In this document: positions 2,965 to 23,845 of the stretch, in pieces
Layout: each line of letters opens with the position of its first letter
Position numbering within the stretch: the first letter of the stretch is position 1
Source of the DNA: a virus
Direction: 5' to 3' (one strand)
Length of the DNA: 64,000 bases
Virus record (IMG/VR): IMGVR_UViG_3300002461_001229
Notes under the pieces: model-generated
The model's input: only the letters and a program-made list of their open reading frames with translations
What the model was told of the DNA's origin: nothing
Databases searched by the model: none
Position numbers and translations under genes: made by a program

Positions 2965-2993
2965 AAAATAAACCTTTAGCCGTTCCTTGTCAA
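2965..2993 (-). promoter_or_regulatory. Sigma70-type promoter of copy 1
   Basis: TTGACA (2993-2988, containing the giant gene's TGA stop), 17-nt spacer, TATTTT (2970-2965). Confidence 0.7.
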
Positions 2994-8900: not shown

Positions 8901-11900
8901 ACCGATTGCTTCATCGCCGGCGTGATGTCGACGGAGTGAAGCGACTCATACTTCGTGCCGAGCAGATATGCGGTCAGCTCGTCAACACTCATCGCCCTGG
9001 CATCCGCTTCCGAAATATCTCTACCGGTGGAAACAAAATCGTTCAATTCGCGAATACCAATGGCGTTGCGGGTAAGAAAATCATCAGCTACCTTTCGCAG
9101 CTCGTTCCGGTCGCGCTGCCCACCGAGCGTGCTGCGCTCGTCGTTGATAGTAGGTATTTCTGTCCGGCCAACCTTCGCCCCCCACTTCTTCACGTACTTG
9201 CTCACAAAGCCCGGGACCATCTTGTCGTAGAAGCCGCGCATACCCTCGCCGCCGATTTCGACCTCGGCGATGTCCTCGATAAGGACGTACTGTTCGCTGA
9301 GGATCTTATCGGCGATCGCCTTTGGAAGAACTTCTGACAAGTGTTCTCCCTCGGTCTTTAGCAAAGCGTCCGGAGCTGAGATCACAACACCGTTCTCGGG
9401 GTCCACCTTTAGATACAGGTCGCCGCCGTCTCGCCGCAGGGTGATGTGGAGATACTCCTGGTCCGGCCTTGTCGGATGGTTGGAATCGAAATGGTCAATG
9501 CCCGACTCGATCTCATCGACCACCTTCGACAGGCTCCACCGTTTGTTCTGCTGCTTACCGGTCGTCCAGGCAACGCGATCGTAGCCTTCTTCGACCGCTC
9601 TGCGGAGCATCTTCTTGAACGCCAGCTCGTGCCAGGACTTCTTGAAAGGAGCATCGGGAATTGCGGAAAACTTGCCACGCCACGATTGCTTAGCAGCTTC
9701 CGCCGCTCGTTCTTTTGTTGGGCCGTAGCCAATAATGTCGCCGTGAGGTGACGAAATCGCAGCTTTCCATTCCCCCGACGCAACACCTTCCGTGGTGGTC
9801 CACTCAAAGACGGGCTCGGGCATTTTTGTGTTGTAGCCCTGTTTCCTTCCGCGTTGGTGCCAATCGCTCTGAATCTCCTCGATCACGAATACACGCTTCC
9901 CATCGGCGTCGATGCGTTCGGTCGCCCGCACCCAAAACAGGATGTTTGGCATTCCGCCGAAGTGGCCGGTGGTGAACGCAGGGCTGTTCGCGTCGTTGCC
10001 GAGGTCGATGTCCGTAAGCCTGTCAAACTCGGCCTGTTCCGCCTCCGTCCAATTTTGCCACACCGCTTCTCCGCTTCCGTATTTCGCGGCGAGCTCATCG
10101 CGATACTTCATCCGCAACATCGAATACTGCTGCGGCAGGGTGAAGACGAATTCGCGGTAGTTACTGTGAGGTCCTGAGAGTCGCCAATCCGGGTTGTCGT
10201 ACTGAAGAGCTCCGGTAGCCGGGTCCTGTTCGTCCATCGCACCGTCAGCTCCGCGGGCTTCGCGAGACGCCATTCGCAGGTTGTCCCATGCTTCTTCCAA
10301 CTCTTCGTAGTCGTCTTCCTCAATGCCCCAATACTCTTCACTGCTGGCCCCGATCACGCTTGTTAAGGCTTCGTCAAGATCGTCGTCTTGGTCGGCGCGG
10401 TTGAGAAGGTCGTTTATGAGTTGCTGCCGAGTTGCTTCCACGGTTGCCGGTATTATGTCCCACGTGTCGAGGTCGAACATCTCGGCGAGCTCCTCCCGAG
10501 CCGCCTCGTGGCGCTCGTCGACGTCGGTCGAGTTGCGGTCGGCCGGCGAGCGTTCGTCGCGTTCACGCTTGCGAAGCACCTTTTCCTCGATCTGGATACG
10601 GGCGTCTCGCATGAATTCGAGCATCTCGTCCTTCGTCACGGTCCGCTTGCCTTCAAGCCACTCATCGACGCCGAGCCATTCCACTTCCTCGCGCTTGATG
10701 CCCGGACCTTCGAGGATCTTCCGCACCTGATCGGCCGGAGCACGATTCGGCATCTTCGTTTCGATCGCTCGTTCCGCGGCCGAGTAAAACGCAGGAGCGG
10801 CTGCCGGTTCGGCGATGGAGAGCATCGTCGAATCACCTTCTGCTTCGGCATTGAACGCGTCCCGAGCTTCCGGGCTGCGGAAATGGAAGCCGGGGATCGC
10901 TCCGTCCTTCTTGAAGCTCGAATAATAGCCGCCGTGCGTGCGGGCGATGGCCGAGATCCGCTTGAACTCGTCCTTGTTCATTTTCGGACCGGTCGGCTTG
11001 GCGACGTAGATCATGTGACCCTGCGTCGTATGCTGAAATTCACGAAGATCGAACGCGTGCTGGCCGTGCGGAATCGCTGCGGCCCGCCCCGATGCGTTTT
11101 GCTGTGCCCTGGCTTCCCGCTCGGCCTCGAACTTTGCTTCACGTTCGATCGCTTCCTGCTCGGCCCTGCGGGCAGCCTCGCCGCCATACGGACGTGGCGG
11201 GATCGTCAGCTCCTCGAACTCGTCGAACAGCTCGTCGAACGTGCGGACGTCAGAAAGATCGAGCAGCCCCCACGGTTCGTGGAGTTCAAGTTCCTTCCCG
11301 GCAAGTTTGTCGAGCACGACCATCCGCGTTTTGACGCCGGTGCCGGCACGTTCGAAGGTCTTCGTCGGCAGCGAGATCTCGGCGGTCTTGACGACGCGAG
11401 TGCTTGCCGGCACTATCCTCGGACCTGCAATGACCTTGTCGAACCGGTCGGAGCCTCTCAGCTCCATTGTCATTGGGCTGCCCTGGGCGTCGGTGCCGTG
11501 GAGTGTTGCGATGAACTCAAAACCGCGGCGGACGGTCTCAGCTCTGGTGACGCCGTAGATAGTCCCTTTGTCGGTGACTTGGACGGTGTCGCCCTCGTAA
11601 AGCGAGAGCGGCGCAAAAGTGTTCGGATCCGATCGCACTATCAGCTTGCGGGCCTTTTCCGTCTGCCCCGCCATCAGCTGCTCAAGCCGCTTGTCGGCGG
11701 CCGGGCCTTCCGGCAGTATCGCCACGACGCGGCCATTGGTTCGCAAATGCTCGAACGCTTTCGCGAGGTGCTCCATCGCGGTCTTGCCGCCCTTTCCGTA
11801 CGGCGGATTCATCAGGACGACGTCGAACTTGTTCGCGCGAACGTCGAGCGATTCGAAGACGTCCTGCTCGAAGCGGTTGGTGTCGGACGGCGGTATATGC

Positions 11901-14900
11901 AGCCGTAGCCTGGTCATCAGCTCCTGCGAAGGTTCGATCACGGTGTTCCGTGAGGTCTGCGGCAGGAAGCGGGCGATCGCCCCGTGGCCGGCACTCGGTT
12001 CGAGGACGCTGTGGCCAGCAGCGATATCGGCAAACTCGACCATCTTCAAGCCGAGCGGTTCAGGTGTCGGATAGTAGTCCTCGCCCTCGGCCGATTTGGT
12101 CTTTGAGGTCTTCTTCTGCTGGCCGAAGAAGAACGTCTTCGCCCGCTCATATTCGGATATGGCCTGCTGCCCCGCCCGGTCACGCTCCTTGCCCCCGACG
12201 CCGTCCAGCTCGGTCGGCATCGGATCGGTCCGCGGTTCGAGGAACGAATCGATTATCGACTGCCGGAGAGCTCGGGCCTCTTCGCCGAGCGAGAGGTTCT
12301 CGGCGGTCGAGGAGCGTTCTGCCATGGTCTGTGCGAACGCGGTCGCCTCCCATAGCGTTCCGGTCGTGAAATAGAACATCGGAGCGTTGGTCTTGGTGCC
12401 GAGACGGTAGATGCGGCCTTCCTTCTGGATGGCCTCGACCGGACGCGACGGCAGCCCGAGGTCGATCATTACCCGCTGATGCTTGCCGGTCGTGTCGTGA
12501 AGGCTGATCCCCGCCTGCCCCTTGTCGGCCTGGACGAGGATGATATCGATCTCGGAGTTATCCGTGTTGAAGATCGCCATCGACTCGCGGTTCGCTTTTT
12601 TCGACTGCGTACCGTTGAGCTGCACGTGTTGCAGGCTCGTGGCTCCACCCTTGAACGATTCGGCGAAAGTCTCGATCGGCGATTCCAGCCCTTCGAATGG
12701 CAGAGCGATCAGGTCCGGCCGTTTTCGCGTGAATTCGGCGTAGAGATCTTTCAGATTGACCTCGATGGTCTTGCCGCCGACGCTGATCAGCGTCTTTTCG
12801 TTCGGCACCTTCGGCTTGAACGGATGGAAACCGCCGCCGACGTTGAACTTGTGGAAGACGACGACCTTGCGGCCGGCTTCGACGTGGGCGTCAATGATCG
12901 GCACCGCCGCCTTGGCCTTGATGGCTTCGAGCAGGAACATCCGGTTGTGGTAACTGAAGCTCTTATTGACGATCTCGGCAAGCGGCCGGAACCTTCCGCC
13001 CTCGGCTTCCTGCAGCCACTTCAGGCCGTCGTCGATCTTCTGGCCAATGCCCTCTTTGATCAGCAGGAACTCGCGGGAATAGTCCTGGTCGATGCCGAGC
13101 ATACGGCCGCTCAGGACACGCTGCTGTTTCAGCCACGTGTTGAACTGCCGCTCCATGATGTCCGTATCTACCTCCGGCCCGGGTTCGGTCAGCTTGTTGT
13201 ACCGCATCCGGTAGCCGAAGTGCTCGATCATGAACGCTTCTTGGTTGTTCGGCTCGTTGTAGTGGCGCGTCCGTCCGAGCTGGTCGTCCGGGACCTTTCC
13301 ATCGTCGTAGTCGAACAAATAGCCTTCCGCGTAATCGACCGATTTCCGATAAGCGAACGGCGTCGCCGAAAGCATCAACGCCTTGCCCTTTGGTTCGTCG
13401 GCAATTCGCCGGTCCCACTCGGCTACGGCGGCATTTCCGATCTTCTCGATCTGCTTGTTCAGCGTAGCGACCGCATCTTCGAGTGAACGCAGCTCCTCGC
13501 GGGCCTCCTTCGCGCGATCGGCCATTTGCGGGCCTTCGTCCTCGTAGCGCTCGAGAAGAGCCCGTACGACCTCGATCCGGGCTTCGGCCTGTTCGCGTTC
13601 GGTGACCTCCTTGATGGTCGCCTGCCGCCAATAGTCCATTTTCCCGCGTTTGTGCAGTGTCATCGCCCGCAACGCCTTCGACGCCCCGGTCGGCTTACCG
13701 TCCTTGTTCGACGAAAGCGTATGAGCCTCGTCTGCCACGATCAGGTCCCATTGACGCTTGATCAGCGACGGGTTCTGCTGCATGTTCGCGTAGGTCGTGA
13801 TAACGATGCCCTCAGCGCCGTTGTCTTGCGTGTCCGCGAGCTGCCGGACCTGCAGCCCAAAGTTCGTGGCGGCCGAGATCCACGCGTTCGCGATCTCCTG
13901 CGACGGCACGACAATGAAGATATTGTCCTTGCCCTGCATCGCCATTCGCTTGACCACTCCGAGCCCGGAGAAGGTCTTGCCGGTGCCGGTGCCGTTGGTC
14001 AGCATCACGCCGTTGCCATCGCGGACGAATAGGGCATCTTCGACGAAACGAACGTCCTCGTGCTGCTCCTTGAAGAGCACCGGAACGGTCGCCTGAATGT
14101 TGGCCAGGTCGCCGATCTTGACCGATTTACCTTCGGCAGCCTTCTGCTGTTCGAGGCGTTCCGCTGCGTCCTTCGATTCCGGCTCGGGAACCGAATCAAT
14201 GATGTCCTCGGGTGTGGTCAGGTCCTGCCCGATCACTCCGTCGCGGATGTCGGCGACGAACTGCACGATATACGGCTTCATCAGCCGCAGCGTCTCGTTA
14301 TCGTAGCCCTCGGCCCGCATCTGGTCGATCAGCAGACGCATCGCGTCGCCGATGTTTTGAGCGGCATCCTTGAAGTGGTTGTAAGCCTCTAGGAAGTGTG
14401 GCTTAGCGGCCTGATACGTCTCATCGTCGAACGCCGGCACGGTCGAGGATTTGAACTTCTTCGGATCGAACAGCTTCCCGAGCCCCTTGATGGCCTCGTC
14501 GATGCCTTTGCCGGTCGACTCTTTGGCAGATGTGAGCTTGTCGGCAAACTCTTTCAGGATGTATCCGTCGTAGGCTTCAATGCGACCGCCCGGATAGTGC
14601 TCTAACTGCCTTTGAGCGATCGCCGGATCAACGATATTGCCCACCTGCTCGACGCCGTTCGCGTCATAGACGCGATACTTTGTGATCGGTACTGAGCCTC
14701 TCGGGATTGAGGTCTGCTTTGCCGCAGCCCTTTGCTTTTTCGTCGTGCCGCGAGATTCGGCACTGCGGTTGGCCTCGATCTCGTATTCCCAGACGTTTTC
14801 GTTTGAGACTTGATAGATGGTGTGCGTGTTATCGGTCAGGCCGAGTTCGGCAGCACGGTCAGCAAGATGCTTGATCGCCCCACCGACCGCCGCAATGGCG

Positions 14901-17900
14901 ATGTCAGACTTTGCGACCTCGTCGCGGCTCAGGCCGCTCGGTGCAACTGCGAGGAAACCGTGCCCGGCTTCGATCGCTTTTCGTACTTTCTTTTGGTTGC
15001 CGAGATAAACCGGCTCGGTGCGAGATTGTTCGCCAAAAAGGTTGGTGGTCGGGGCTTCGCCGGCAGGCGGCACCAGCTCGTCGAATAGGGCTCCGAGATC
15101 TACTTCAGTTCGCGGAACAGCTTCTCCGCCAGCGTCGCTTGCTGCTTGCTGATCATCGGAGATTCCTTCCTGAGATACTCCATCGCCTCGTCCAGCGTCT
15201 CGATCGACGGCATCGGGACGCTCGGCTGCTTCCTCGCGTACATTGCTATCGCCTGGTGTTCCTTCCAGAGCGGAGCTATCTCCAAAAAGGCTCTGCTCAC
15301 TTCCGGGTTCAATCCTTTGGCCCGGAGGCTTCGCATCGCTCTCTCGCAGGCTATCCGCATCTCCGGTTCGCTCAGTCGGAACATCGTCTTCCCGAACTTC
15401 GACATCATCGGTTCCGTCCTCGCTATCCGGTTCCAGATCTCGCTCGAAATAGTCATCATAAACCTTTGCTCCTTCCGGGATTCTAACATCAAAGCCGAAG
15501 TAGTAATAAAAATCGTCCTCCGTGACGACGTATTCGCCCGGTGCTTCGAACTCACTGAACTCGCCAACATGCTCAATTACGACATCCACCATCGGCGGAA
15601 GATCGCCCTCGCCGGCATAGACCTCCTCGACGTAAACAAAATCATCGTTCCGTCCGATCACATAGGCACCGCGGAACGCCGGTTCAAGCTTTTTGTTTTG
15701 TTCCCATTTGTGCGTGTAGCCGTAAACATCGATCAGCTGCTGGAGCGTGACCTTGCCGTCCTCTAAACCGCCCTCTATCTCGGCAACATTTGCGGCAACT
15801 TCTGAGGCGGTTTTCGCATTTCGGAGCAGCTCGTCGGCCTGTCTCCCGAATTTGTTCGAGGCGATCAGGTCGTAGATCTTCCGTTGAGCTATCGTCAGCC
15901 CCTCGCGGCCGATCGCGGCTTGCCGGACGAATTCGTCTAGGTTCGCACCGCGGAGCTCGGCCTCGCGGATCCACTCTATCGCGGTCGCGGCATCGGCGAT
16001 CAGCTGCTGGACCGCCTCGCTGTCCGTGTCTTCGCCCGACCAGCGGGAAATAATGCCCTGTGCGGCCGAGGAAGCCTTCGGCGTCGCTTTGTCGTTCCGC
16101 GTGTCGTAGAGCAGCTCCCCGATCTCCTCGCCGAACGTCTCAATGACCTGCCGGCGTGCTTCGGTTTCTGCCTTACTGAGCAGCGATTCCTTGATCGCCG
16201 CTTTGGAGTTATCCTCGGCTTGCTTTGGCTCGATCGCGGTCGGGCCGTCCTGAGCGAACAGACCGGTGTTGTCGGCTTCGAGGCCGAACAGGTCGGTCTG
16301 CTCGGCGCCGCGGAGCGCTTCGAGCGACGGTGGTTGTGCCTCCGGCGTCGCGGCATTGTCCGCCTGGTCCGTCTCACGCACCTCTTCCTTCGAGGGGAAA
16401 TACCAATCGAATTTTTGCTTTCCGGCCTTGAACGGAGGCGTGTTGCCGAGTGCCTTTTCGAGCTCGTTGATGTTCGCCTTCGCCCATCCGATATGGGTCA
16501 GGACGAGCTTCATGTTGACCGGTGCGCTGTTCCAGAGGTACTGATCAAGCTCCTCGGTCGCTTCCGGATTTTTCAGATCGGCCAAATTCGCGTTATAGCG
16601 ATTTGTCAGCCGCTCAAGTTCTGCGCGTTCCGCCGCCAATGCTTCTTCATTCGAGGCGTATCCCTGCCCTTTTTTCTTTGGAAACTTGCCTGCGTTATAG
16701 AACGGGTTCTCAAAAGCAAGCACATCGTCCAATGCCGGGACCTGAGCCGCCACCGAATTCCGGAAATCGCGGTGCCGTTCGCGTTCGGCCTGCCGTTCTG
16801 CCTCGGCTTCCTTGCTCAGCTCTTCGTCTTCTTGCTTTTCTTGCTCGGCAAAGAGGCCGGACGTGTCGGGGTTGCCGACTTCGCCTTCCGGTTCTTCCTT
16901 GAAGATGCTCGTTTCGCTGCCTTGATCGCTATCCGGTGCGCCTGATCCGTCAGGTTCGGGAAGCGTGTCCGCAGCTCCTCCATCCGTTTCTCCCCTATCT
17001 CGGGCGATTTCGAGGATCTCGCCGATGATGTCTTCGATGATGTCCGGGTCAAGTCCATAAATTCCTCCAAAGTCTTTGAGTATTTCGATCTCCGCATCGC
17101 TCACGCCTGCGGACCGCTCGAGCTCGGCGAGTATCGGTGCGACGGCGGGATCCGTCATGAATCGCTCGATAACACCGACCAGGCCGTATTCCTCTCGCGG
17201 CATCGTCATCAGCTGGTCGACCGCGGCCCAATCCATCGGCCCGCCCCACGTTTCCTCGGAATCTTCAGCGTAGGCCGCGAGGTACGCCCGGCTCATTGCT
17301 GCCCGCTTTTCCGGCGTGTCAGTCAGGCTGCGGTTTTCGGGATCGGCGGTCAGAGCCCGCGTCGTGTCGGACGTTTGCGGAGCCGTTACGAACGTACGTT
17401 TTATCCGTTGTATCGTATCGAATGCTTCGCCGAGAAGATCGTCCACGTGATCCTCTAGCAGCACATCCATGTTGATGCCGTCGAAGAATCGCGGGTCGGT
17501 CAGGCGTTCGATGACGTCATACAGCGAATGAATGTTCTCGTCCGTAGGCTGCTCCAGCAGTTTGTACTGTTGGGCAGCCTTGACGAGCTGTTGAAGCACG
17601 TCCTCCGTGAACTGCACCCATGCCGTTTCCTGCGAGTCCATGTAGGACGTGATTTCGGCTTGCAGTTCGCGGATCCTCGCACGCAGCGGCTCCCGCTGGG
17701 CCTTTGCCGCCTTGCTCTGGCCCTTGATAGCGTTCACCTGGGGTTTGATCTTCTCGATCTCCTCCAACTGCCCTGCCGTCGCGTCCGGGTCGATCTCGAA
17801 GGTCTGGAGCGTATCAAACAGGTCGCCGATTGTCGCGGCCGTGTCGCTGAACAGGTCCTCAGCGGTCCGGCGATTCGATTCGGTCGGCTTTTCTGTTTTG

Positions 17901-20900
17901 AACTTTTTCTCCAGATCGGCGACGGACATGATCGTCCTGTCCGTTCCGCGTTCGAGCCTGATGCCAATCTGGCCTGACTTACCGAAATCCGATTGATGGC
18001 CCGTAACTTTCCATGGCTTACCGCCCGTGCGATGAAGCAGCTTGCGGCCAACAGGATATTTGGCCTTGAGGTCTTCGGGCTTAGGAGCGGTTGTCGTCGC
18101 CATTGCTGCAAGCTCGGCTTCTAGGCTGTCAAGCTGCTGCTCTGCTGCGGCCAGAGCGTTCTCGTCAACCTCGTCGGCGTTCTCAAGTTTTTTGATCTGC
18201 CGCTTGGTTTGTGCGAGTGCCTTTTTGACTGTTTCCGGCGTCCGCTCTGGCTCGGGCAGCGGGCCGTTCTGCAATCCCACCTTCGTGATCGCCGAGTCCG
18301 GGTTTGCGGCAAGGAATTCGTTCAGCGTGCCGTCCGGCAGCCATTCGTCAACATCCGCTTCGGCAACATAGGCGGTAAGCCATTCGCCCTTCGATTGATC
18401 GTAATGGCGAACCTTGAACACACTCTCATTGTTCGATATCGCCTCACCGATGATCCTGCCTCGGCCGGAAAGTTCGGTCGCCGGCGAGTCGGCGGTCGTA
18501 AACGAAATGTCGCGTCCGCCGTTCGATCGATCGGCGTGTTTGTCGAGGGCCTCGGGGCTGATCTTATCGAGCTCCTTGCGAAACTCATCATCCGGCAGAC
18601 GGGCAATGCGTGCCTTATCTGCGTCCGCCGCCTTCACTTCCGCGTCAAACAGCGACGGGGCAGAATCTTCCTCCGGCACCAGATCGTCGAACATCTTGCC
18701 GAGGTCGTCGTCGGACGGCGTATCGCCACGCATTTCGATCGGCTCGTCGAACATCGGCCCGGATCGCAAACCCTGCTTGTCCGGCGTTCCGAGTTTTTCA
18801 TAAGCGTAGTCGCGGCCGGCTCGGCTGATCTGCTCTTGCGATCCCGTTTTCGTGTCGAGGAGGAACCACTGTTGCCCGTTCGGCGTCATCCTGCCGGTCG
18901 TTGCAGTAAAGCCCTGTTCGATCAGCTTGTCGATGTGCTTCCGCTCTCCATCGGAAAGAGCCTCGTCCTGGTCGTCGTCCTGACGAGTGTCCGCAATGAA
19001 TTCGCGGTTCCCTGCGGTGTCGATGTCGCCTGCGTCGTTGACGACGAACTTCTGCATCAGCGAGGAGTCGAGTGTTTCCGAATCGACCTTGGCCTGCTCG
19101 ACCGGGCTCATCGCCGCAACTGTCGATTTGTTGGCATCTACTGCGATCTGCCGCAGGTCGCCGTCTTCGAGCTTTGTGTTGTCGAGGATCCCGACATACA
19201 TCAGGTTGTCGCCCTGAACGCTCGGGTCCTTTGATTTCGCGAATCCCTGGTACTCCTCGAAACGCTCCGGGTAGCGTTCGCGGGCGAGGTCGAGCGCCAG
19301 CGTCCGGCCGTTGCCGGTGATCAATGCGTACTTGATCTTTCCGTCGACCTCGACCGGAACGACGAGCATTCTGCCGTCGCCGGCGTTGACGTTGTCGCCG
19401 AGCTTCGCCGGGATCAGGTTGCGTGCTATCTCATCGGCCTGAGCGTCCGAGGCGATGGAGTCACGGTCACGCGGCTGAAGCAGCTCCGGATAACCTTCCT
19501 CCCACGAACCGATGATGTCGTCGCGGCTGATCACGACCGGGACCACATCGTACTTGTCGTTGGTCGAGGTATAGACCGTATCGATCGGCATGTCCTCGGT
19601 CGGCGTGAATTTCTGGATCGCGGCACCCTTTCCGGAAGCTGCCCGCCCGGTGCGGATCTTCCGCACGACCTCGGCGGTCGTCGGCTGTCCGGCAGGCTGT
19701 GCCGGCTGTCCGGCCTGCCCCGGCTGCGGAACGCGTTCGATGATCTCTCCCCCGAAGTCCTCGGCACCGAATTGCGTCGGCTGCCGTGCCGATGTCGTCT
19801 GCTTCGGAGCTTTCGGCGGCTTGTACTCGGTCAGGCTGGTGCCGCCGATCGCGAGCTGCTCCGGCGTGAAGAAGTCCTGCCGATGGTAGAACTCTTCGCC
19901 CGGTCTGCCGCGGTAATCGTAATCGACGACGAACTTGCCCTGCCGAATTGCGACGATGCGGCCGGTGCCTTTGCCTTCGATCTCGACTTCCTTGCCTATG
20001 ACGTTGCGAGGAAGCCTTGTTTTTGGTTTTGCCTGCCCCGCTGGCTGCGTTGGAGGCGTTGCCGGGGGTGTTTGGGTGCCTTCAGGCGTTTGAACGCCTC
20101 CAGCGGGCTCTGTGGCCGCCTGTTGAGGCGTCTGAACGGTTCCCGGAGCGACCTCGTTGGCAATATCGTCCAATGCGGCCGTATCTCGCCCGCCCATATC
20201 AAGCCCGCGGACCGTCGCCTGGCCGGTCCGGTCGCCGAACTTTTCGAGAATGGCGGATTCGCCCGCATCCTCGGCCGCCTGTGGCGTGCGGAGCTCGCCT
20301 TCCGGGATCTCTGCTTCCGCTTCCGGCTGTTCGCCCGGCATCCGGCTTTGACGGATGCCCTCGCCGATCACAGAGCCGACCGTCTGCGTTCCGCCGCCGA
20401 GGATGCCGCCCGTCGCGCCGCCGATCACGGCAGAATGGAAGTTCTCGGCGATCGCCTTTGGCAGCTCGTCGAGAAAATTGAGGATCAGGCGGCCTTCGCT
20501 CGGGTTTTGAGCGGCAATGGCCTTGACCGCAGCATCCACGAACGAAGACTGAGCCCACTCTTGGATCGCTTCCTCGGGCATTTCGCGAGCGATGCCCTGT
20601 GCAGCTCCGCGGCCGGCCGCTTTGGCGAACTCGACCATCGACCGGGAAAGCGTCTTGACCGATTCATCGGAGAGCTCGGTGCCGAGCCGGGCCAGCATAC
20701 GGTTTGCCGTGCCGCCCAATCCGAACTTCTCCATGTAGCCGGAGCCGGCACCGACGAGGACCGCCCAATTCTTGGCCTGTTCGACGGGAATGCCCGCTTT
20801 GACCATTTCCTCGAACGTGTTGCCGATCTCCATTCCGGCGCCGAGTGCAGGGATCGCGTACTTGAACTTCTTGAGAGCAAAACCTGCCCCGAGGAAGACG

Positions 20901-23845
20901 ACACCGGACGCTAAGCCCTGATTGACCTCGCCGGAGAACGTGTGCTGCAGATACCGGTCATCGCCGGCAAACTCCTCCAGCCAGCGGGCATACTGCCAGA
21001 GACGAGCATTCCGCGGATCGTCCTGAGCCCCTTCGATGTCGCGGGTCAGGATGTCGGACGGCCGCATCACCCCCGAGCCGGATGCCATCACGTTCCGAAG
21101 AGCGACGACGACGTTCATCGCATTCCGCACGGTCGGCATGTAGTCCTTCGGCACTTTGATGCCGAGCACTTCGAGATCTTCGGCTGCCGAATCTATCACC
21201 GCCGCGGACTTGCCGAAGCTGGCGATGTTCTTGAGCACGTTCGAGCCGAAGAATTTCAACTGCCGGCCGATGTTCGCTTCCTCGCCGGCATTGGCTTCCA
21301 TGAACTTGTGGAATTCGCCGATCGATCCGAATTCAGCCTGCATCGACCGCAGCGAATCGCCGATCGCTTCTCGCCGCCGCTTCTGGGCTTCCGGGCTGTT
21401 CACGCCACGGAGCTCTGGCGGGCCTTCCCATGCCGAATAGACCATCGGCAGGAGGATGCCGGCGTTCGATGGCTTGCCGTCCTTGCCGGGCCGGGCCTGC
21501 TCCCTCGCGGCCTTGATCCGGTCTGCCCGCTTGAACGGGCCGACGACGAATTCATAGAACCCGGTGCCGCCGTCCTGGACGTCGTTGAGAAGTCGTTTGT
21601 ACCAGCTCGGGTCGTTGAGACTGGCGATGGCGTTGATCAGCTCGCTTTGCTCGGCTTCCTTGGCCTTGTCGAGCACGTCACGCGGGACGATGCCGAGGTT
21701 GGCGAGTGCTTCGACGTAGGCGATGTTCGGTGATCGCCGGGAAAGATTCTCGAGAGCTTGCTGCCCGAGCCGGTTTTCCGCGGGATCCTTGCTGCGAAGC
21801 ATTTCGAGGACGCGTCCGGTCTGGTTCGCGGCACTGTCCGCGGTCGCGTTCGCCCCGGTCGTTTGCTTGGCGACGTAGTCCTTGATGAACTGCTCGTTCT
21901 CAAGTCGCTTCTTGCGTGCGTCGGCGAACTTCGGGTCACTTTCGAGAGCCGCCCGGAGCCGGTCTGCGTTGATGCCCATTTCGGCAAATTCGGCGATCTT
22001 CGCATCGTCGATCTCGAACGTGCTCGCGATGAACTTGGCGATCGCGTCGTCGCGCGTCCGCTCCAGCAGCGGTTGGTTGAATTTGAGGAAGTCGCGGATC
22101 TCGGCCGCACGCTCCGCTGTGATCTGATAACGCCCCTTGGTCGGTTCGGTCGGCACGTTGGTAGCCTTGCCGCCCTCGGTCAGATAGACGAAGTCGCCGC
22201 CTCGCCGCTTCTGGAACTCGATAGCGGCCTGAACCTCGACCTTGTCGAGCGGCCGGCCGTACAGCTCATTGCCGAGCTGACGGACCGCTTGTTCGAACAC
22301 GTGCTGCCGTGGATCGGAGCCGAGCGGAGCGGTTGCCGGGTCAACGTCGGCGTAGAACGTGCCGATCCCCTCGGTTGACGGTCCTGCGGTCGTGCTTCGC
22401 GGGGCCCGGCGCGCTCGTGTCGGCGTTTCCTGCACCTGCGGAACGATGCCTTGTTGGGCATTGTTCGCCGCGTAGAGCTCAAGGGCCTCGATCTGCTTGA
22501 TCTCCTCGTCCGTGAAGATCCTTTGCTGCTTACCGGCCTGGACCGCGGCCCAGCCTTCAATGAACTTCTGCCGCAGCTCTTCGGAATCGGTAAAACCCTG
22601 CTCCAATCGCGTCTGATACGCTTTGCGAAGCATCGGATCAGGAGGCAGCTCACTTTTTGGCGGGGTCTTGCCGGCCACCCACGGTGGCAGCTCGGGAACG
22701 CCCTCCTCGCGGATCGTGCCGTCCGGCGAGAACACGAACGGTTTGCCGTCGCGCAGCCTGCGGACGTGGCCCTCGGGCACGTTGTCCTGGTTTGCGTCGA
22801 GCTGGTACTCGTTGCCCTCGGCATCGTATGCCCGCTTTGTCGGAGCGGTCGGCTTGAACTGCTTCGTCTTTTCGTCCAGCTCGTAAGTATCGCCGTCCTC
22901 GTTCTTGGCGAAATAGCGGCCGTCGATCTCGCCGGCGTACTTCAGCCCGTTGCCGACATCGCCCGTCTTTTGCCACTCGTATTTGAACGGTTTGCCGAAC
23001 TGATCGACGTTGGGGTCTTCTGCACCCTCCACGCCCGGCTGAAGAGCTGGCTGCCTCGGCGGCTTGCCCTTCCGGAACTTGGCATCGAACGCAGCAATAT
23101 CCTCCGGCCGGTGCGCGATCGGAGCAGTCGGACCGCCGACCTTGAAGTCCACCTGCGGAGCTCCGGACACCGGATCGCGGGTAATGCCGCCTGCGACCTC
23201 GTCGAGCCGCCGCAGATCCTTGAATCCACCCGTCCGGTCGACGTAGTGCCGGAATGTTTCCTTGTTGTTCGGAAGATAGGAGTACATCTTCCAATCCGGC
23301 ACCTCGCCGTGCTTTTTGTAGTATTTGAGCGCCCGGGACTTCGGTCCGCCGACGTAGGCCAGGCGACGACCGATCGGGTCATCGGAACCGCTGCGGAACT
23401 CCAGAGCCCCGATGGCGATATTGTCGATCTCGTCGTCGGGGTTGAGGCCGTGCTTCTGCCATTTCTTTGCCGTGGACGGCATCACCTGCGAGAAACCGAT
23501 CGCCCGCTCACCGGACTTGGTCGGGACGCCCCTGATCACGCGGCCGGCGTCGTCAAAATGCCTGCGCCCGGACTCGTGCTTCGTGACCATATCGAAGTCG
23601 TCGAAGACATCGTCCTCCATGTCGAGCTTGAGGCCACGCAGCCGGTCGAGCACGCGTTGGCGACGCTCGGCTTCTTTATTTGCCGGTGCCGACGCGGTTC
23701 GCTTGGGCCGCTGAGCCCTCGGTTTTGGCTTGGCGGCTTTTGGAGTGTCTGCGAAGGCATCTAAAGCGGAAAAATCCTGAGTCTGTTGAGACTCGGGATC
23801 ATCCGCAAACGCGTCGAGAGCAGAAAAGTCGGTTTCTCGTTCCAT
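2990..23845 (-). CDS. Giant (6951 aa) polyvalent internal-virion/ejection protein, DarB-like
   Basis: Single 20.9-kb ORF. Motifs: lytic transglycosylase (HES...GFSQVMPSTA...AYVGGP, ~23300-23620); DdrB-like ParB (LQPRDR...ITGNGRTLA, ~19050-19560); SF2 helicase (GTGTGKT, DEAH, SAT, QKEGRIYR, ~12250-14100); N6A MTase (LEPSAGHG, NPPY, ~11650-12080); two EEIQSD-type domains (~7600-10790); zincin-like QEIFH/EEVAA (~6975-7204). Confidence 0.93.
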   Translation of the reverse strand: MERETDFSALDAFADDPESQQTQDFSALDAFADTPKAAKPKPRAQRPKRTASAPANKEAERRQRVLDRLRGLKLDMEDDVFDDFDMVTKHESGRRHFDDAGRVIRGVPTKSGERAIGFSQVMPSTAKKWQKHGLNPDDEIDNIAIGALEFRSGSDDPIGRRLAYVGGPKSRALKYYKKHGEVPDWKMYSYLPNNKETFRHYVDRTGGFKDLRRLDEVAGGITRDPVSGAPQVDFKVGGPTAPIAHRPEDIAAFDAKFRKGKPPRQPALQPGVEGAEDPNVDQFGKPFKYEWQKTGDVGNGLKYAGEIDGRYFAKNEDGDTYELDEKTKQFKPTAPTKRAYDAEGNEYQLDANQDNVPEGHVRRLRDGKPFVFSPDGTIREEGVPELPPWVAGKTPPKSELPPDPMLRKAYQTRLEQGFTDSEELRQKFIEGWAAVQAGKQQRIFTDEEIKQIEALELYAANNAQQGIVPQVQETPTRARRAPRSTTAGPSTEGIGTFYADVDPATAPLGSDPRQHVFEQAVRQLGNELYGRPLDKVEVQAAIEFQKRRGGDFVYLTEGGKATNVPTEPTKGRYQITAERAAEIRDFLKFNQPLLERTRDDAIAKFIASTFEIDDAKIAEFAEMGINADRLRAALESDPKFADARKKRLENEQFIKDYVAKQTTGANATADSAANQTGRVLEMLRSKDPAENRLGQQALENLSRRSPNIAYVEALANLGIVPRDVLDKAKEAEQSELINAIASLNDPSWYKRLLNDVQDGGTGFYEFVVGPFKRADRIKAAREQARPGKDGKPSNAGILLPMVYSAWEGPPELRGVNSPEAQKRRREAIGDSLRSMQAEFGSIGEFHKFMEANAGEEANIGRQLKFFGSNVLKNIASFGKSAAVIDSAAEDLEVLGIKVPKDYMPTVRNAMNVVVALRNVMASGSGVMRPSDILTRDIEGAQDDPRNARLWQYARWLEEFAGDDRYLQHTFSGEVNQGLASGVVFLGAGFALKKFKYAIPALGAGMEIGNTFEEMVKAGIPVEQAKNWAVLVGAGSGYMEKFGLGGTANRMLARLGTELSDESVKTLSRSMVEFAKAAGRGAAQGIAREMPEEAIQEWAQSSFVDAAVKAIAAQNPSEGRLILNFLDELPKAIAENFHSAVIGGATGGILGGGTQTVGSVIGEGIRQSRMPGEQPEAEAEIPEGELRTPQAAEDAGESAILEKFGDRTGQATVRGLDMGGRDTAALDDIANEVAPGTVQTPQQAATEPAGGVQTPEGTQTPPATPPTQPAGQAKPKTRLPRNVIGKEVEIEGKGTGRIVAIRQGKFVVDYDYRGRPGEEFYHRQDFFTPEQLAIGGTSLTEYKPPKAPKQTTSARQPTQFGAEDFGGEIIERVPQPGQAGQPAQPAGQPTTAEVVRKIRTGRAASGKGAAIQKFTPTEDMPIDTVYTSTNDKYDVVPVVISRDDIIGSWEEGYPELLQPRDRDSIASDAQADEIARNLIPAKLGDNVNAGDGRMLVVPVEVDGKIKYALITGNGRTLALDLARERYPERFEEYQGFAKSKDPSVQGDNLMYVGILDNTKLEDGDLRQIAVDANKSTVAAMSPVEQAKVDSETLDSSLMQKFVVNDAGDIDTAGNREFIADTRQDDDQDEALSDGERKHIDKLIEQGFTATTGRMTPNGQQWFLLDTKTGSQEQISRAGRDYAYEKLGTPDKQGLRSGPMFDEPIEMRGDTPSDDDLGKMFDDLVPEEDSAPSLFDAEVKAADADKARIARLPDDEFRKELDKISPEALDKHADRSNGGRDISFTTADSPATELSGRGRIIGEAISNNESVFKVRHYDQSKGEWLTAYVAEADVDEWLPDGTLNEFLAANPDSAITKVGLQNGPLPEPERTPETVKKALAQTKRQIKKLENADEVDENALAAAEQQLDSLEAELAAMATTTAPKPEDLKAKYPVGRKLLHRTGGKPWKVTGHQSDFGKSGQIGIRLERGTDRTIMSVADLEKKFKTEKPTESNRRTAEDLFSDTAATIGDLFDTLQTFEIDPDATAGQLEEIEKIKPQVNAIKGQSKAAKAQREPLRARIRELQAEITSYMDSQETAWVQFTEDVLQQLVKAAQQYKLLEQPTDENIHSLYDVIERLTDPRFFDGINMDVLLEDHVDDLLGEAFDTIQRIKRTFVTAPQTSDTTRALTADPENRSLTDTPEKRAAMSRAYLAAYAEDSEETWGGPMDWAAVDQLMTMPREEYGLVGVIERFMTDPAVAPILAELERSAGVSDAEIEILKDFGGIYGLDPDIIEDIIGEILEIARDRGETDGGAADTLPEPDGSGAPDSDQGSETSIFKEEPEGEVGNPDTSGLFAEQEKQEDEELSKEAEAERQAERERHRDFRNSVAAQVPALDDVLAFENPFYNAGKFPKKKGQGYASNEEALAAERAELERLTNRYNANLADLKNPEATEELDQYLWNSAPVNMKLVLTHIGWAKANINELEKALGNTPPFKAGKQKFDWYFPSKEEVRETDQADNAATPEAQPPSLEALRGAEQTDLFGLEADNTGLFAQDGPTAIEPKQAEDNSKAAIKESLLSKAETEARRQVIETFGEEIGELLYDTRNDKATPKASSAAQGIISRWSGEDTDSEAVQQLIADAATAIEWIREAELRGANLDEFVRQAAIGREGLTIAQRKIYDLIASNKFGRQADELLRNAKTASEVAANVAEIEGGLEDGKVTLQQLIDVYGYTHKWEQNKKLEPAFRGAYVIGRNDDFVYVEEVYAGEGDLPPMVDVVIEHVGEFSEFEAPGEYVVTEDDFYYYFGFDVRIPEGAKVYDDYFERDLEPDSEDGTDDVEVREDDVPTERTGDADSLRESDAKPPGQRIEPGSEQSLFGDSSALEGTPGDSNVREEAAERPDAVDRDAGRGDGVSQEGISDDQQAASDAGGEAVPRTEVDLGALFDELVPPAGEAPTTNLFGEQSRTEPVYLGNQKKVRKAIEAGHGFLAVAPSGLSRDEVAKSDIAIAAVGGAIKHLADRAAELGLTDNTHTIYQVSNENVWEYEIEANRSAESRGTTKKQRAAAKQTSIPRGSVPITKYRVYDANGVEQVGNIVDPAIAQRQLEHYPGGRIEAYDGYILKEFADKLTSAKESTGKGIDEAIKGLGKLFDPKKFKSSTVPAFDDETYQAAKPHFLEAYNHFKDAAQNIGDAMRLLIDQMRAEGYDNETLRLMKPYIVQFVADIRDGVIGQDLTTPEDIIDSVPEPESKDAAERLEQQKAAEGKSVKIGDLANIQATVPVLFKEQHEDVRFVEDALFVRDGNGVMLTNGTGTGKTFSGLGVVKRMAMQGKDNIFIVVPSQEIANAWISAATNFGLQVRQLADTQDNGAEGIVITTYANMQQNPSLIKRQWDLIVADEAHTLSSNKDGKPTGASKALRAMTLHKRGKMDYWRQATIKEVTEREQAEARIEVVRALLERYEDEGPQMADRAKEAREELRSLEDAVATLNKQIEKIGNAAVAEWDRRIADEPKGKALMLSATPFAYRKSVDYAEGYLFDYDDGKVPDDQLGRTRHYNEPNNQEAFMIEHFGYRMRYNKLTEPGPEVDTDIMERQFNTWLKQQRVLSGRMLGIDQDYSREFLLIKEGIGQKIDDGLKWLQEAEGGRFRPLAEIVNKSFSYHNRMFLLEAIKAKAAVPIIDAHVEAGRKVVVFHKFNVGGGFHPFKPKVPNEKTLISVGGKTIEVNLKDLYAEFTRKRPDLIALPFEGLESPIETFAESFKGGATSLQHVQLNGTQSKKANRESMAIFNTDNSEIDIILVQADKGQAGISLHDTTGKHQRVMIDLGLPSRPVEAIQKEGRIYRLGTKTNAPMFYFTTGTLWEATAFAQTMAERSSTAENLSLGEEARALRQSIIDSFLEPRTDPMPTELDGVGGKERDRAGQQAISEYERAKTFFFGQQKKTSKTKSAEGEDYYPTPEPLGLKMVEFADIAAGHSVLEPSAGHGAIARFLPQTSRNTVIEPSQELMTRLRLHIPPSDTNRFEQDVFESLDVRANKFDVVLMNPPYGKGGKTAMEHLAKAFEHLRTNGRVVAILPEGPAADKRLEQLMAGQTEKARKLIVRSDPNTFAPLSLYEGDTVQVTDKGTIYGVTRAETVRRGFEFIATLHGTDAQGSPMTMELRGSDRFDKVIAGPRIVPASTRVVKTAEISLPTKTFERAGTGVKTRMVVLDKLAGKELELHEPWGLLDLSDVRTFDELFDEFEELTIPPRPYGGEAARRAEQEAIEREAKFEAEREARAQQNASGRAAAIPHGQHAFDLREFQHTTQGHMIYVAKPTGPKMNKDEFKRISAIARTHGGYYSSFKKDGAIPGFHFRSPEARDAFNAEAEGDSTMLSIAEPAAAPAFYSAAERAIETKMPNRAPADQVRKILEGPGIKREEVEWLGVDEWLEGKRTVTKDEMLEFMRDARIQIEEKVLRKRERDERSPADRNSTDVDERHEAAREELAEMFDLDTWDIIPATVEATRQQLINDLLNRADQDDDLDEALTSVIGASSEEYWGIEEDDYEELEEAWDNLRMASREARGADGAMDEQDPATGALQYDNPDWRLSGPHSNYREFVFTLPQQYSMLRMKYRDELAAKYGSGEAVWQNWTEAEQAEFDRLTDIDLGNDANSPAFTTGHFGGMPNILFWVRATERIDADGKRVFVIEEIQSDWHQRGRKQGYNTKMPEPVFEWTTTEGVASGEWKAAISSPHGDIIGYGPTKERAAEAAKQSWRGKFSAIPDAPFKKSWHELAFKKMLRRAVEEGYDRVAWTTGKQQNKRWSLSKVVDEIESGIDHFDSNHPTRPDQEYLHITLRRDGGDLYLKVDPENGVVISAPDALLKTEGEHLSEVLPKAIADKILSEQYVLIEDIAEVEIGGEGMRGFYDKMVPGFVSKYVKKWGAKVGRTEIPTINDERSTLGGQRDRNELRKVADDFLTRNAIGIRELNDFVSTGRDISEADARAMSVDELTAYLLGTKYESLHSVDITPAMKQSVMDEGQPMFSIYEPARKEVRFYSGLERAVEGLKQEKFSVDQVMNVINKLPGIRAEELDHTLLDVFVQLQADLGARSITKDELLKKIRASKIVVEPLALGWDGDQDSAKFRGYAEPFPASREDYKEMFLTAPFAEGGWIDGHPEYADVKNPVVRIRMDKVTLDDGRRALMVHEVQGPDEDNMAKMPAVLQKYHKQMGLKYAMQYAIDQGLDAVAWTTGEQQLARYPIEKTVDRIEFSKNLSGQSLIRVTAKGDRDPIRITAGPHGTIINSSEDKFVDRKLTEVFPKALANQILEQTSGTIEGDGLKIGGDSLRNLYDKVIPAHMKKIYGRYAAKVENGEISYDPYLKLTDFRVEELELELVNPAPHLHRFKVTATDSATGLPAYRGTFLTREAAEQYIKEAKEVFRRKTHPVWTMGITDPLREALATDEQPMYSIEEENRKQAIKILKTLDIEDVVPMVEATRSGDRVKLNLPAMELLRRAFEQVDIEAGKRKVGDESTYPAFLGLFTDAAKLIKVEQALMAAAVNAAETGHPAADAMLSGLANDIADARKAGQQTAVFYVYDAKLPQEIFHQAVYLGSVEKHLTKRHARPAELDKMPQVRKAWDSFFSQQPEYSPERLRQTANMSKANAEALSKALVREEVAAWVAEGSWEELGLTKDEGQEYLFEFLESFADKVYADTKKEGKSDEDAERAVEAALRRFEEIEHVQEATQRVLAAARKEVDAGTDGRPDGRDTQGNAKGKPSGASGGVQEAPRPDAEQGAKPYDLEGFEPKTQSKVAGDASEIPETKQFPGVRSKTELASLPGTERAAGIAADDVIYTVFSDRAAQAAAKRMLTENSTEEVLKILKNTESPDVHHAIAAFSIQQSLREEATRIEATKPDEAAKLRRVSIDLGVHLAMKMVRAGRFIRAAGVILKTTDGLIAVAQKTYQDRHGVGNDLPADIIRRIEEKAGKAEVDLAEHEAFRRQMESLQRQLDALKQELAGSEDAIRTSRKVTGRRKKFVTEIRESQKESVAAALQRMQSRALIRAAFPQHVSPMSASEQQVLDDVTMMSVFDEAKLPDEILKDMGILGADILLEGLALPSDKMIRPLTFDEQMIAMYGEDIRPHLEDVHRESLRQRDVWIKENQRKKEIKAIIDELGDHLTEDDIEAIIQARADELERRVLITKLHRVRAERGQKTEAVTTIEGVIARIAKPGQEAAVAAAVELIHRKPSAQEFYRLLEAIGIKNKDAREALREGKELLDQARLVFKREEEERKDELRDRIKQGDEELHQLEKEVAASRVRARESQAEIEKELKRIGSGEFMYRVSQAREAINTPRAIMASADLSFLLRQGGWFMFARPEDQGPAFLALLNATTERFNRLGYERTMDAMEDNPYFELSVQAGMDYAGLGKHGEFSITKGEEEFRSNMLRHMANWSKGKSFHKFNIARLPNAIIQKSDELYTAFLDAQRLSTFAQTAELWASRGITFETHPKEYRALASYINDATGRAAIPELLGGSRAASLLMNLPLFAPRFTLSRFKLLWKSTLGMAFLPPETRRIVFRDALRFYGTTGALMSLAWLGGATIGFDWDDADFLKLRWGPEDKDTTDMLIGMQQSLRVTMRIIQASLRRFVGPEWSNGLIRDSLYHVDDNGRVLVNEFRAEMGLNVETSIWMNFLRTKLGPPASLMVDWVQDSNVIGEKFRWDKAIVSRVTPLGLQETVEAGYDGGVATALAAFAHTMLGVGYGHYQKSLTGQRTEAQKLAAKINGLRFSSTVETEEAKAARDVLNGLRDAARQGEDISEQVKAMYEAGDLTKQEAERLLLGGEVNPLFLQIRNMPVGLIKEVRKIATPSETEMIDTLLDSKQARKQKTDRRQSAAEELFGKTPLMRGGVTDAPTKPLAERMKRASVRDALILYQEYQAQLSDEQKATLRSELRRKLTTSSRRGTLSDENREAAEKIFGGELNLPRPRPRRRSPSRSRQPLRGLEGVY
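6571..6789 (-). CDS. Nested +1-frame small gene A (72 aa) inside the giant gene
   Basis: GAGGAG, 7 nt, ATG; MSKKQPKEFSPQPEKRSMLAQTADLMAEIRKEMPKASRAERLAEFKKRHDLMLSK. Giant-frame codons switch to A/T-ending here. Confidence 0.55.
   Translation of the reverse strand: MSKKQPKEFSPQPEKRSMLAQTADLMAEIRKEMPKASRAERLAEFKKRHDLMLSKEQSPTTSKDSSPKPKAK
15100..15459 (-). CDS. Nested +1-frame small gene B (119 aa) inside the giant gene
   Basis: AAGGAG, 9 nt, ATG; protein-like helical sequence MMTISSEIWNRIARTEPMMSKFGKTMFRLSEPEMRIACERAMRSLRAKGLNPEVSRAFLEIAPLWKEHQAIAMY...LAEKLFRELK, with G/C-ending codons. Confidence 0.65.
   Translation of the reverse strand: MMTISSEIWNRIARTEPMMSKFGKTMFRLSEPEMRIACERAMRSLRAKGLNPEVSRAFLEIAPLWKEHQAIAMYARKQPSVPMPSIETLDEAMEYLRKESPMISKQQATLAEKLFRELK
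16816..16983 (-). CDS. Nested +1-frame small gene C (55 aa) inside the giant gene
   Basis: AGGGGAG, 6 nt, ATG; MEELRTRFPNLTDQAHRIAIKAAKR. Only the first ~25 codons look protein-like. Confidence 0.4.
   Translation of the reverse strand: MEELRTRFPNLTDQAHRIAIKAAKRASSRKNRKAKSATPTRPASLPSKKSKKTKS

Follow-up and report, generated by a model that had tools for sequence, protein, structure and literature searches.

Can the disordered linker of a giant phage gene also encode a separate small protein in another reading frame, and if several such linkers do so, are their products related? These questions are raised by the window, the whole 64,000-nucleotide stretch of viral DNA analyzed here. A first-pass annotation proposed that a third small ORF, termed ORF C below, is nested in the +1 frame of a giant gene and shares a 12-residue motif with two others (ORFs A and B). 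It further proposed that such peptides form a paralogous family and are a general, unannotated feature of giant genes, possibly with one per module. The features considered are as follows.

2990..23845, minus strand: host gene, encoding a phage polyvalent (DarB-like) protein
16816..17058, minus strand: ORF C, long form of 80 aa, the probable conserved form
17064..17068, minus strand: SD GGAGG, 5 nt ahead of ATG 17058
16816..16983, minus strand: ORF C, short form of 55 aa, from the start first annotated
16990..16996, minus strand: SD-like AGGGGAG of the short form
16909..16983, minus strand: core of C, conserved and predicted to be a basic helical hairpin (residues 26-50 in the long form)
15100..15459, minus strand: nested ORF B, 119 aa, with +1 homologues in 95 of 102 dereplicated giants; its 12-mer, at 15183-15148, falls within the ORF and lacks conservation
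6571..6789, minus strand: nested ORF A, 72 aa, with its 12-mer internal at 6714-6679

The giant gene encodes a 6951-aa protein in which Pfam identifies ddrB-ParB, SF2/SNF2 helicase, and methyltransferase domains. Relatives of its helicase are annotated as DarB-like or PLxRFG, and the contig carries matches to terminase and tail genes, as expected of a phage. The product, a large multidomain phage protein that combines SF2/SNF2 helicase, methyltransferase, and ParB-like domains, is a polyvalent (DarB-like) protein. The contig is 72.5 kb long and has a GC content of 59%, compared with about 47-56% in the other large contigs of its 855-kb bin (about 52% overall). On the basis of this difference, it is probably a mis-binned prophage from a different host. 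The same proteins as in the whole window (G000:C3) are also found on a 759-kb contig elsewhere, the samples being activated carbon and drinking water.

ORF C lies wholly inside the giant gene, on the same strand and in the +1 frame. Both frames are open here and in L020, the one contig that provides related DNA. The first-pass annotation placed the start at ATG 16983, with AGGGGAG as SD and a 6-nt spacer. Reading of the sequence confirmed this arrangement, and the ORF does run from there to the TGA at 16816-16818; its full product, however, is 55 aa long and not the 25 quoted. A further start lies upstream. When the 110 +1 ATGs of the giant gene are ranked by SD strength and low structure, ATG 17058 comes first (duplex -9.3, local fold -2.2 kcal/mol), followed by the starts of B and A in second and third place, and ATG 16983 is fifth (SD -8.3). 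The GGAGG ahead of ATG 17058 sits in a run of seven A/T-ending main-frame codons, as does its counterpart in L020 (likewise seven), and such codons make up 26% of the giant gene. At the equivalent position of L020, an in-register AGGA precedes an ATG, this SD being weak (-4.0); at the 16983 position the L020 codon is CTG. In both phages, the upstream ATG falls 24-25 codons before 16983, at the Y-G codons of the last turn of the preceding domain, and the residues of P0002, a relative available as protein only, permit the same SD and ATG.

As the ATG and SD-like site are kept in L020 and rank first of 110, whereas ATG 16983 is replaced by CTG, C is probably 80 aa long and its true start is probably ATG 17058, 25 codons before 16983. 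Since shuffles produce an SD with an ATG about 8% of the time at each site, this start is likely and not proven. ATG 16983 is possibly a second start peculiar to this phage. Judging from these signals, ORF C has its own putative translation initiation region. A weak sigma-70-like site is present between the two starts, at 17052-17025 on the minus strand (9/12; 0.2 expected), and could feed the 16983 form only.

Conservation provides evidence for a coding frame. The C region has two relatives, P0002 and L020, and searches of viral contigs, metagenome contigs, phage records, and proteins found no others. The core of C overlies a main-frame linker that is not conserved. In a gap-free alignment with L020, with the register set by the downstream S-I-F, the core has 7 of 25 identities in the +1 frame and one of 25 in the main frame. 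Its BLOSUM score is 37, whereas synonymous shuffling of the two genes gives -4 ± 11 (P = 2.6e-4). Among the flanks, both upstream segments are not significant and the downstream one is borderline (P = 0.05); by part, the +1 excess is not significant in the leader (P = 0.14) or in the K/S-rich tail (P = 0.05). Free local alignment, which pays for the choice of register, was also performed against a gene-usage null. The +1 frame was the sole alternative frame in excess, with P values of 0.0013 for the whole ORF and 0.0003 for the core (0.3-0.99 for other frames).

Codon composition agrees with this result. The GC contents of the three main-frame codon positions over the core are 0.80/0.64/0.44 here and 0.88/0.64/0.40 in L020, which in both phages is the gene average (0.65/0.42/0.74) displaced by one base; the leader and tail stay in the main phase. 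For P0002, compatibility with encoding C peaks at the homologous register, which ranks first of 5743 windows (132, the next being 105), a score that is an upper bound calculated from protein and partly reflects main-frame identity (8 of 25 main-frame residues are common there). ORF C also has a peak of A/T-ending codons (A/T3), with z values of 3.7, 6.0, and 4.9 for C, B, and A (up to 4.9 for A), although other peaks exist. Further A/T3 anomalies are seen on the minus strand at 20185-19950, 18145-17970, 9865-9630, and 9145-8970, none with a top-ranked +1 start; these are possibly relaxed linkers or decayed nested genes.

A contig set from 2024 holds an identical sequence, so the ORF C region is not an assembly error, and no variants were found over 15000-17700 in the contigs aligned there. 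Searches of the Atlas, Pfam, and PHROG with C returned nothing usable, and neither a stand-alone homologue nor a family was found. AlphaFold2 predicts a hairpin with a pLDDT of 86-94 over residues 21-50, helices at 21-32 and 38-60, and disordered ends; fold searches with C gave generic helical matches only. The layout probably resembles that of ORF A, with a disordered leader spanning the last helix of a domain, a hairpin that covers the linker, and a tail free of constraint. As judged from sequence conservation against one DNA relative (P = 0.0003-0.0013), it is the +1 frame, and not the main-frame linker, that is under selection over the 25-residue core. The proposal of a third nested gene is thus upheld by +1 conservation in L020, start ranking, and the codon-phase shift: ORF C is very probably a real nested gene, and probably starts at 17058.

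A screen of 64 GC3-rich giants was also made, in which a +1 ORF counted if it had 40 aa or more, an SD of -5 kcal/mol or stronger, and an A/T3 z of at least 3. The screen recovered B in 59 of 63 giants. Beyond B, it identified 61 nested candidates in 39 genes, compared with 2-5 in synonymous shuffles and three in the +2 frame; the shuffle null ignores the relaxed codon bias of linkers, and some of the 61 are surely false. The candidates form at least eight unrelated families, which are mostly paired with one upstream domain each. An upstream main-frame domain is common to 24 of the 35 pairs of same-family peptides, where about one would be expected. An excess of +1 identity within families (45% versus 33%) was rejected as evidence, being biased by the choice of pairs on +1 similarity. 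In its place, pairs were picked by upstream domain alone, and the +1 excess reached z values of about 4-10 in most pairs of four families; one family was mixed and three had none. The counts and the domain pairing bear out the expectation that nested genes are general and unannotated in giants, with roughly one per module, and multiple domain-linked nested genes are a well-supported general feature of these giants.

One family of hairpins is found 126-181 codons after a JAB-like domain with an invariant H-N-H-P...S-x-x-D. The matches of this domain are weak (Prok-JAB, E = 0.025; RadC structure, E = 0.16). The peptide follows 11 of 12 such domains, whether before or after the helicase, three of these being out-of-sample matches. 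Three RadC-type copies had no such peptide behind them, and none was found in giants devoid of a JAB-like domain. The family comprises two subgroups joined by alignment by eye and by the shared domain, the E-values between them being weak. It includes the cultured Ruegeria phage 45A6 and is the family best suited to testing the idea of cognate inhibition. Its members are listed below, with others in L010, L098, and L157.

L012:13749-13910, JAB-following hairpin
L017:13713-13871, JAB-following hairpin
L007:11087-11236, JAB-following hairpin
L054:9033-9206, JAB-following hairpin
L068:8439-8636, JAB-following hairpin
L103:2130-2330, JAB-following hairpin
L075:8907-9116, JAB-following hairpin
L074:8730-8903, JAB-following hairpin

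Three other nested families are each tied to a single uncharacterized upstream domain of their own, and unannotated nested ORFs of 70 aa with a weak SHOCT match occur in two named phages.

L010:8004-8273, first such family
L012:6633-6803, first such family
L017:8421-8588, first such family
L039:5310-5450, first such family
L003:8814-8999, second family
L047:8568-8759, second family
L127:8907-9050, second family
L023/L033/L036/L041, about 9460-9620, third family
L004:7953-8162, 70-aa nested ORF of Klebsiella phage ZX1
L005:7569-7781, 70-aa nested ORF of Serratia phage Parlo

The 70-aa ORF of ZX1 sits after a main-frame domain that appears ART-like by eye. Peptides resembling the ZX1 and Parlo ORFs are present at L074:6252-6449 and L101:5817-6026.

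For ORF C itself, the candidate partner is the domain of about 80 aa that lies directly upstream of its core, ahead of the linker.

16985..17212, minus strand: main-frame acidic four-helix bundle (structure model), aa 2212-2287, net charge -12

This bundle is common to P0002, L020, and this phage, and the sequence downstream of it differs among the three. Its charges are -12/-10/-6, compared with +3/+5 for C. The bundle has no match in Pfam, fold searches gave generic helical matches only, and no catalytic signature was found in it. A likeness to TerB, noted by eye from a DG-x-[LIV]-S, received no support from family or fold searches. Prediction of a complex between the bundle and the C core scored 0.24, against a mark of 0.32, and was counted neither for nor against a pairing. 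The SD and ATG of C form a predicted unstructured site that is kept within the last helix of the upstream domain. C therefore looks like a small gene that sits immediately 3' of a candidate cognate domain and is inherited together with it, though physical linkage alone would also make a nested ORF travel with the domain upstream.

On this basis, we propose that C would be translated separately from the mRNA of the giant gene, in the +1 frame, by ribosomes initiating internally at 17058 (perhaps also at 16983) during late expression. The product would be a helical hairpin, basic in charge and disordered at its ends. The main-frame linker would in turn be a read-through of the nested gene, given that shifting the frame of a GC3-rich helical gene back by one base yields a stop-free sequence rich in D/E/G/A/P. 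Composition would also account for the +1 phase: the G/C wobble position of the nested gene becomes position 1 of the main frame, which gives D/E/G/A/P/R and avoids stops. Within the producing cell, C may mask or chaperone the acidic bundle up to the point of packaging or injection. Like an immunity gene whose target domain lies inside a polyprotein, it would have to be nested. That C is a cognate partner, inhibitor or chaperone, of the bundle is a reading drawn by analogy to which we give slightly less than an even chance; “inhibitor” is an analogy only, as the bundle has no catalytic signature. More tentatively still, the domain cassettes of polyvalent proteins may each be followed by a hidden gene, nested in the +1 frame, for a cognate inhibitor or chaperone. 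These genes would form a modular set to which C belongs, with the “disordered linkers” being largely their read-throughs.

The main alternative, if a rather unlikely one, is that C is a real gene independent of the upstream domain, for example one for nucleic-acid binding or virion assembly, which descends from an old small gene captured by read-through fusion of neighbours. Such an origin is favoured by a complete HNH-endonuclease-like ORF that is nested in the same way in two giants, each with an SD and in the +1 frame of an open giant gene (PHROG 3377, E = 1.5e-26).

L010:6318-6668, HNH-endonuclease-like ORF
L017:6879-7223, HNH-endonuclease-like ORF

Certain linkers, to judge from these ORFs, are older genes read through in another frame. 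The basic charge of 50 of the 61 nested candidates is likewise consistent with an independent role. However, the peptide families track particular domains closely across differing architectures, and the starts are placed within the last helix of the upstream domain, both of which favour a cognate partner.

A more skeptical explanation is that ORF C is an untranslated by-product of an acidic, D/G-rich linker. Long open stretches in the +1 frame are common in the giant gene, so length proves nothing and was dropped as evidence. In addition, D-G forces ATG-G about one third of the time (GAT/D 0.35), there is a single DNA relative, and the leader and tail add no significant +1 excess to that of the core. 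We nevertheless regard a by-product as quite improbable. The synonymous-shuffle excess is frame-specific, with P values of at most 0.001 under free alignment (0.0013 for the whole ORF). The codon phase is shifted in two phages, the initiation site is top-ranked, the hairpin is modelled with confidence, and the compatibility of P0002 falls at the exact register.

While ORF C is best regarded as a gene, the shared motif does not make it a member of a family with A and B. The 12-mers at 16983, 15183, and 6714 do lie in the same +1 frame and fit the pattern first proposed, of which they are the sole matches in any sense frame. The motif Met is plausible as a start in C, but is residue 26 of A and residue 93 of B, where no usable SD precedes it (-2.0, -3.0 kcal/mol). 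Nor are the corresponding main-frame residues wholly dissimilar, as had been claimed, since all three begin with D-G, which is forced by ATG-G. In 300 synonymous shuffles of the giant gene the strict motif never appeared, so the result named in advance as refuting it, an equal rate in shuffles, did not occur; the pattern had, however, been set after the fact. A fairer test takes the best three-way 12-mer among ORFs A, B, and C, which proved to be exactly this motif. Its P values were 0.015 with residue shuffles, 0.008 with uniform synonymous shuffles, 0.20 with gene-usage synonymous shuffles, and 0.007-0.027 with real protein segments, giving nominal values of 0.007-0.027 in four of five nulls.

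The motif is poorly retained in relatives. Its letters occur in few of the 95 B homologues (M in 4, E in 8, L in 5, R in 7, P in 35), the strict form in this phage alone (1/95), and the B consensus is E-A-x-x-L-A-x-x-[ED]-x-[PR]-L-[TSN]-x-x-[QE]. ORFs A, B, and C of L020 have no common motif (score 36, P = 0.91). C alone keeps the loose form there (score 73), and A and B are without it. ORF A itself shows no excess of +1 conservation against L020 (P = 0.58). Across the +1 frames of 101 other giants (353,012 codons), the strict motif was not found and the loose one occurred seven times, including once in the C of L020, compared with 2-17 in the null. HHalign gave probabilities of 0.3-1.7% for C, A, and B, the profiles of C and A being shallow (2 and 1 sequences). 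A search with the B profile found neither A nor C, and the C profile matches the B of this phage at E = 0.14. Upstream of ORF A, the giant protein has a zincin-like segment (aa ~5550-5625) with QEIFH where HExxH is expected; P0002 also has QEIFH and L020 has EEEFH. This segment is possibly an inactive metallopeptidase.

The idea of a paralogous peptide family defined by the motif is not sustained by these comparisons (one of 95 B homologues, no enrichment in giants, HHalign below 2%), in which A, B, and C stand as unrelated families. Their likeness is best read as a convergent helix-Pro-hydrophobic-Ser/Thr capping turn of a helix-helix hairpin, combined with the limited alphabet of dual coding, and the motif is useless as a search tool. 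It is very unlikely that the three are paralogous after all and that the 12-mer is a common functional site, for example for one shared binding partner, at least in this phage clade. The nominal P values of the best 12-mer speak for such a site, as do the loose pattern of the C of L020, which scores equally well, and the compatibility of the B linker of P0002 with the same motif letters. In addition to the evidence from relatives, profiles, and other giants, the site would lie at different positions in proteins of unequal size, and the A linker of P0002 is not among the top compatible sites. A clade-level meaning is kept in play, to a small degree, by the loose motif of the C of L020 and the match of the C profile to B. 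Taken jointly, it is likely that ORF C is a real gene and that the motif is no mark of paralogy. Finally, it is scarcely credible that a +1 frameshift around aa 2285 cuts the giant protein short and gives it the C core as a different C-terminus: conservation does start at the end of the upstream domain and ATG 16983 is not conserved, but the SD-like site, ATG, and A/T-rich context at 17058 are retained in both phages, A and B have similar initiation sites, and no shared slippery sequence was seen by eye.

Genes embedded out of frame on the same strand are familiar from lambda Rz1, within Rz, and Bacillus comS, within srfAB. Like ORF C, these are complete small genes that carry an SD of their own and occupy a shifted frame within a larger one, and the products of Rz and Rz1 are partners. 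The GenBank record of Parlo itself has an o-spanin annotated within an i-spanin. By its sequence features, ORF C would rank as an embedded gene of the Rz1/comS type. It differs in that a single 21-kb gene contains three nested ones, each overlying a disordered linker, and in that the products are predicted to be soluble and helical, with no lipoprotein signal, and belong to unrelated families tied to different modules. In polymorphic toxin-immunity pairs, a small cognate gene lies directly 3' of a variable effector domain and travels with it. The toxin of such a pair occupies the C-terminus and its immunity gene stands apart, whereas here the domains are internal and the partner would be nested; the bundle upstream of C also has no catalytic motif, and the likeness is one of analogy. 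The Rpn intragenic antitoxins RpnS/RpnL are also genes within genes, in which a small product of internal initiation is the proposed regulator of the larger product (PMC10327210). RpnS shares both the frame and the sequence of the C-terminal tail (PMC10327210), whereas C is out of frame, differs in sequence, and is a putative inhibitor. By analogy, the arrangement of C may work most like these antitoxins or toxin-immunity pairs.

The polyvalent proteins of phages and conjugative elements were described by Iyer et al. 2017, with DarB of P1 as prototype, and the present host gene is typical of them in its ddrB-ParB, SF2/SNF2 helicase, and methyltransferase domains (PMC5512222). The words “overlap” and “linker” do not occur in the main text of that study, which cites polymorphic toxin-immunity pairs as its ref. 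10 (PMC5512222). No nested CDS is annotated in the polyvalent-protein genes of the GenBank records of ZX1, Parlo, Skulduggery, 45A6, and 1.232.O. In a literature search that covered few of the subscription journals, no account of genes nested in those of polyvalent proteins came to light.

To our knowledge, it is an open question how phages make injected multi-effector proteins without damage to the cell that produces them, and another why these proteins have long low-complexity linkers. If the linkers encode cognate partner peptides, both questions would share one testable answer. In that case, unannotated microproteins, among them candidates from the cultured phages Klebsiella ZX1, Serratia Parlo, and Ruegeria 45A6, would serve as markers of domain boundaries and as candidate inhibitors of the domains they accompany.
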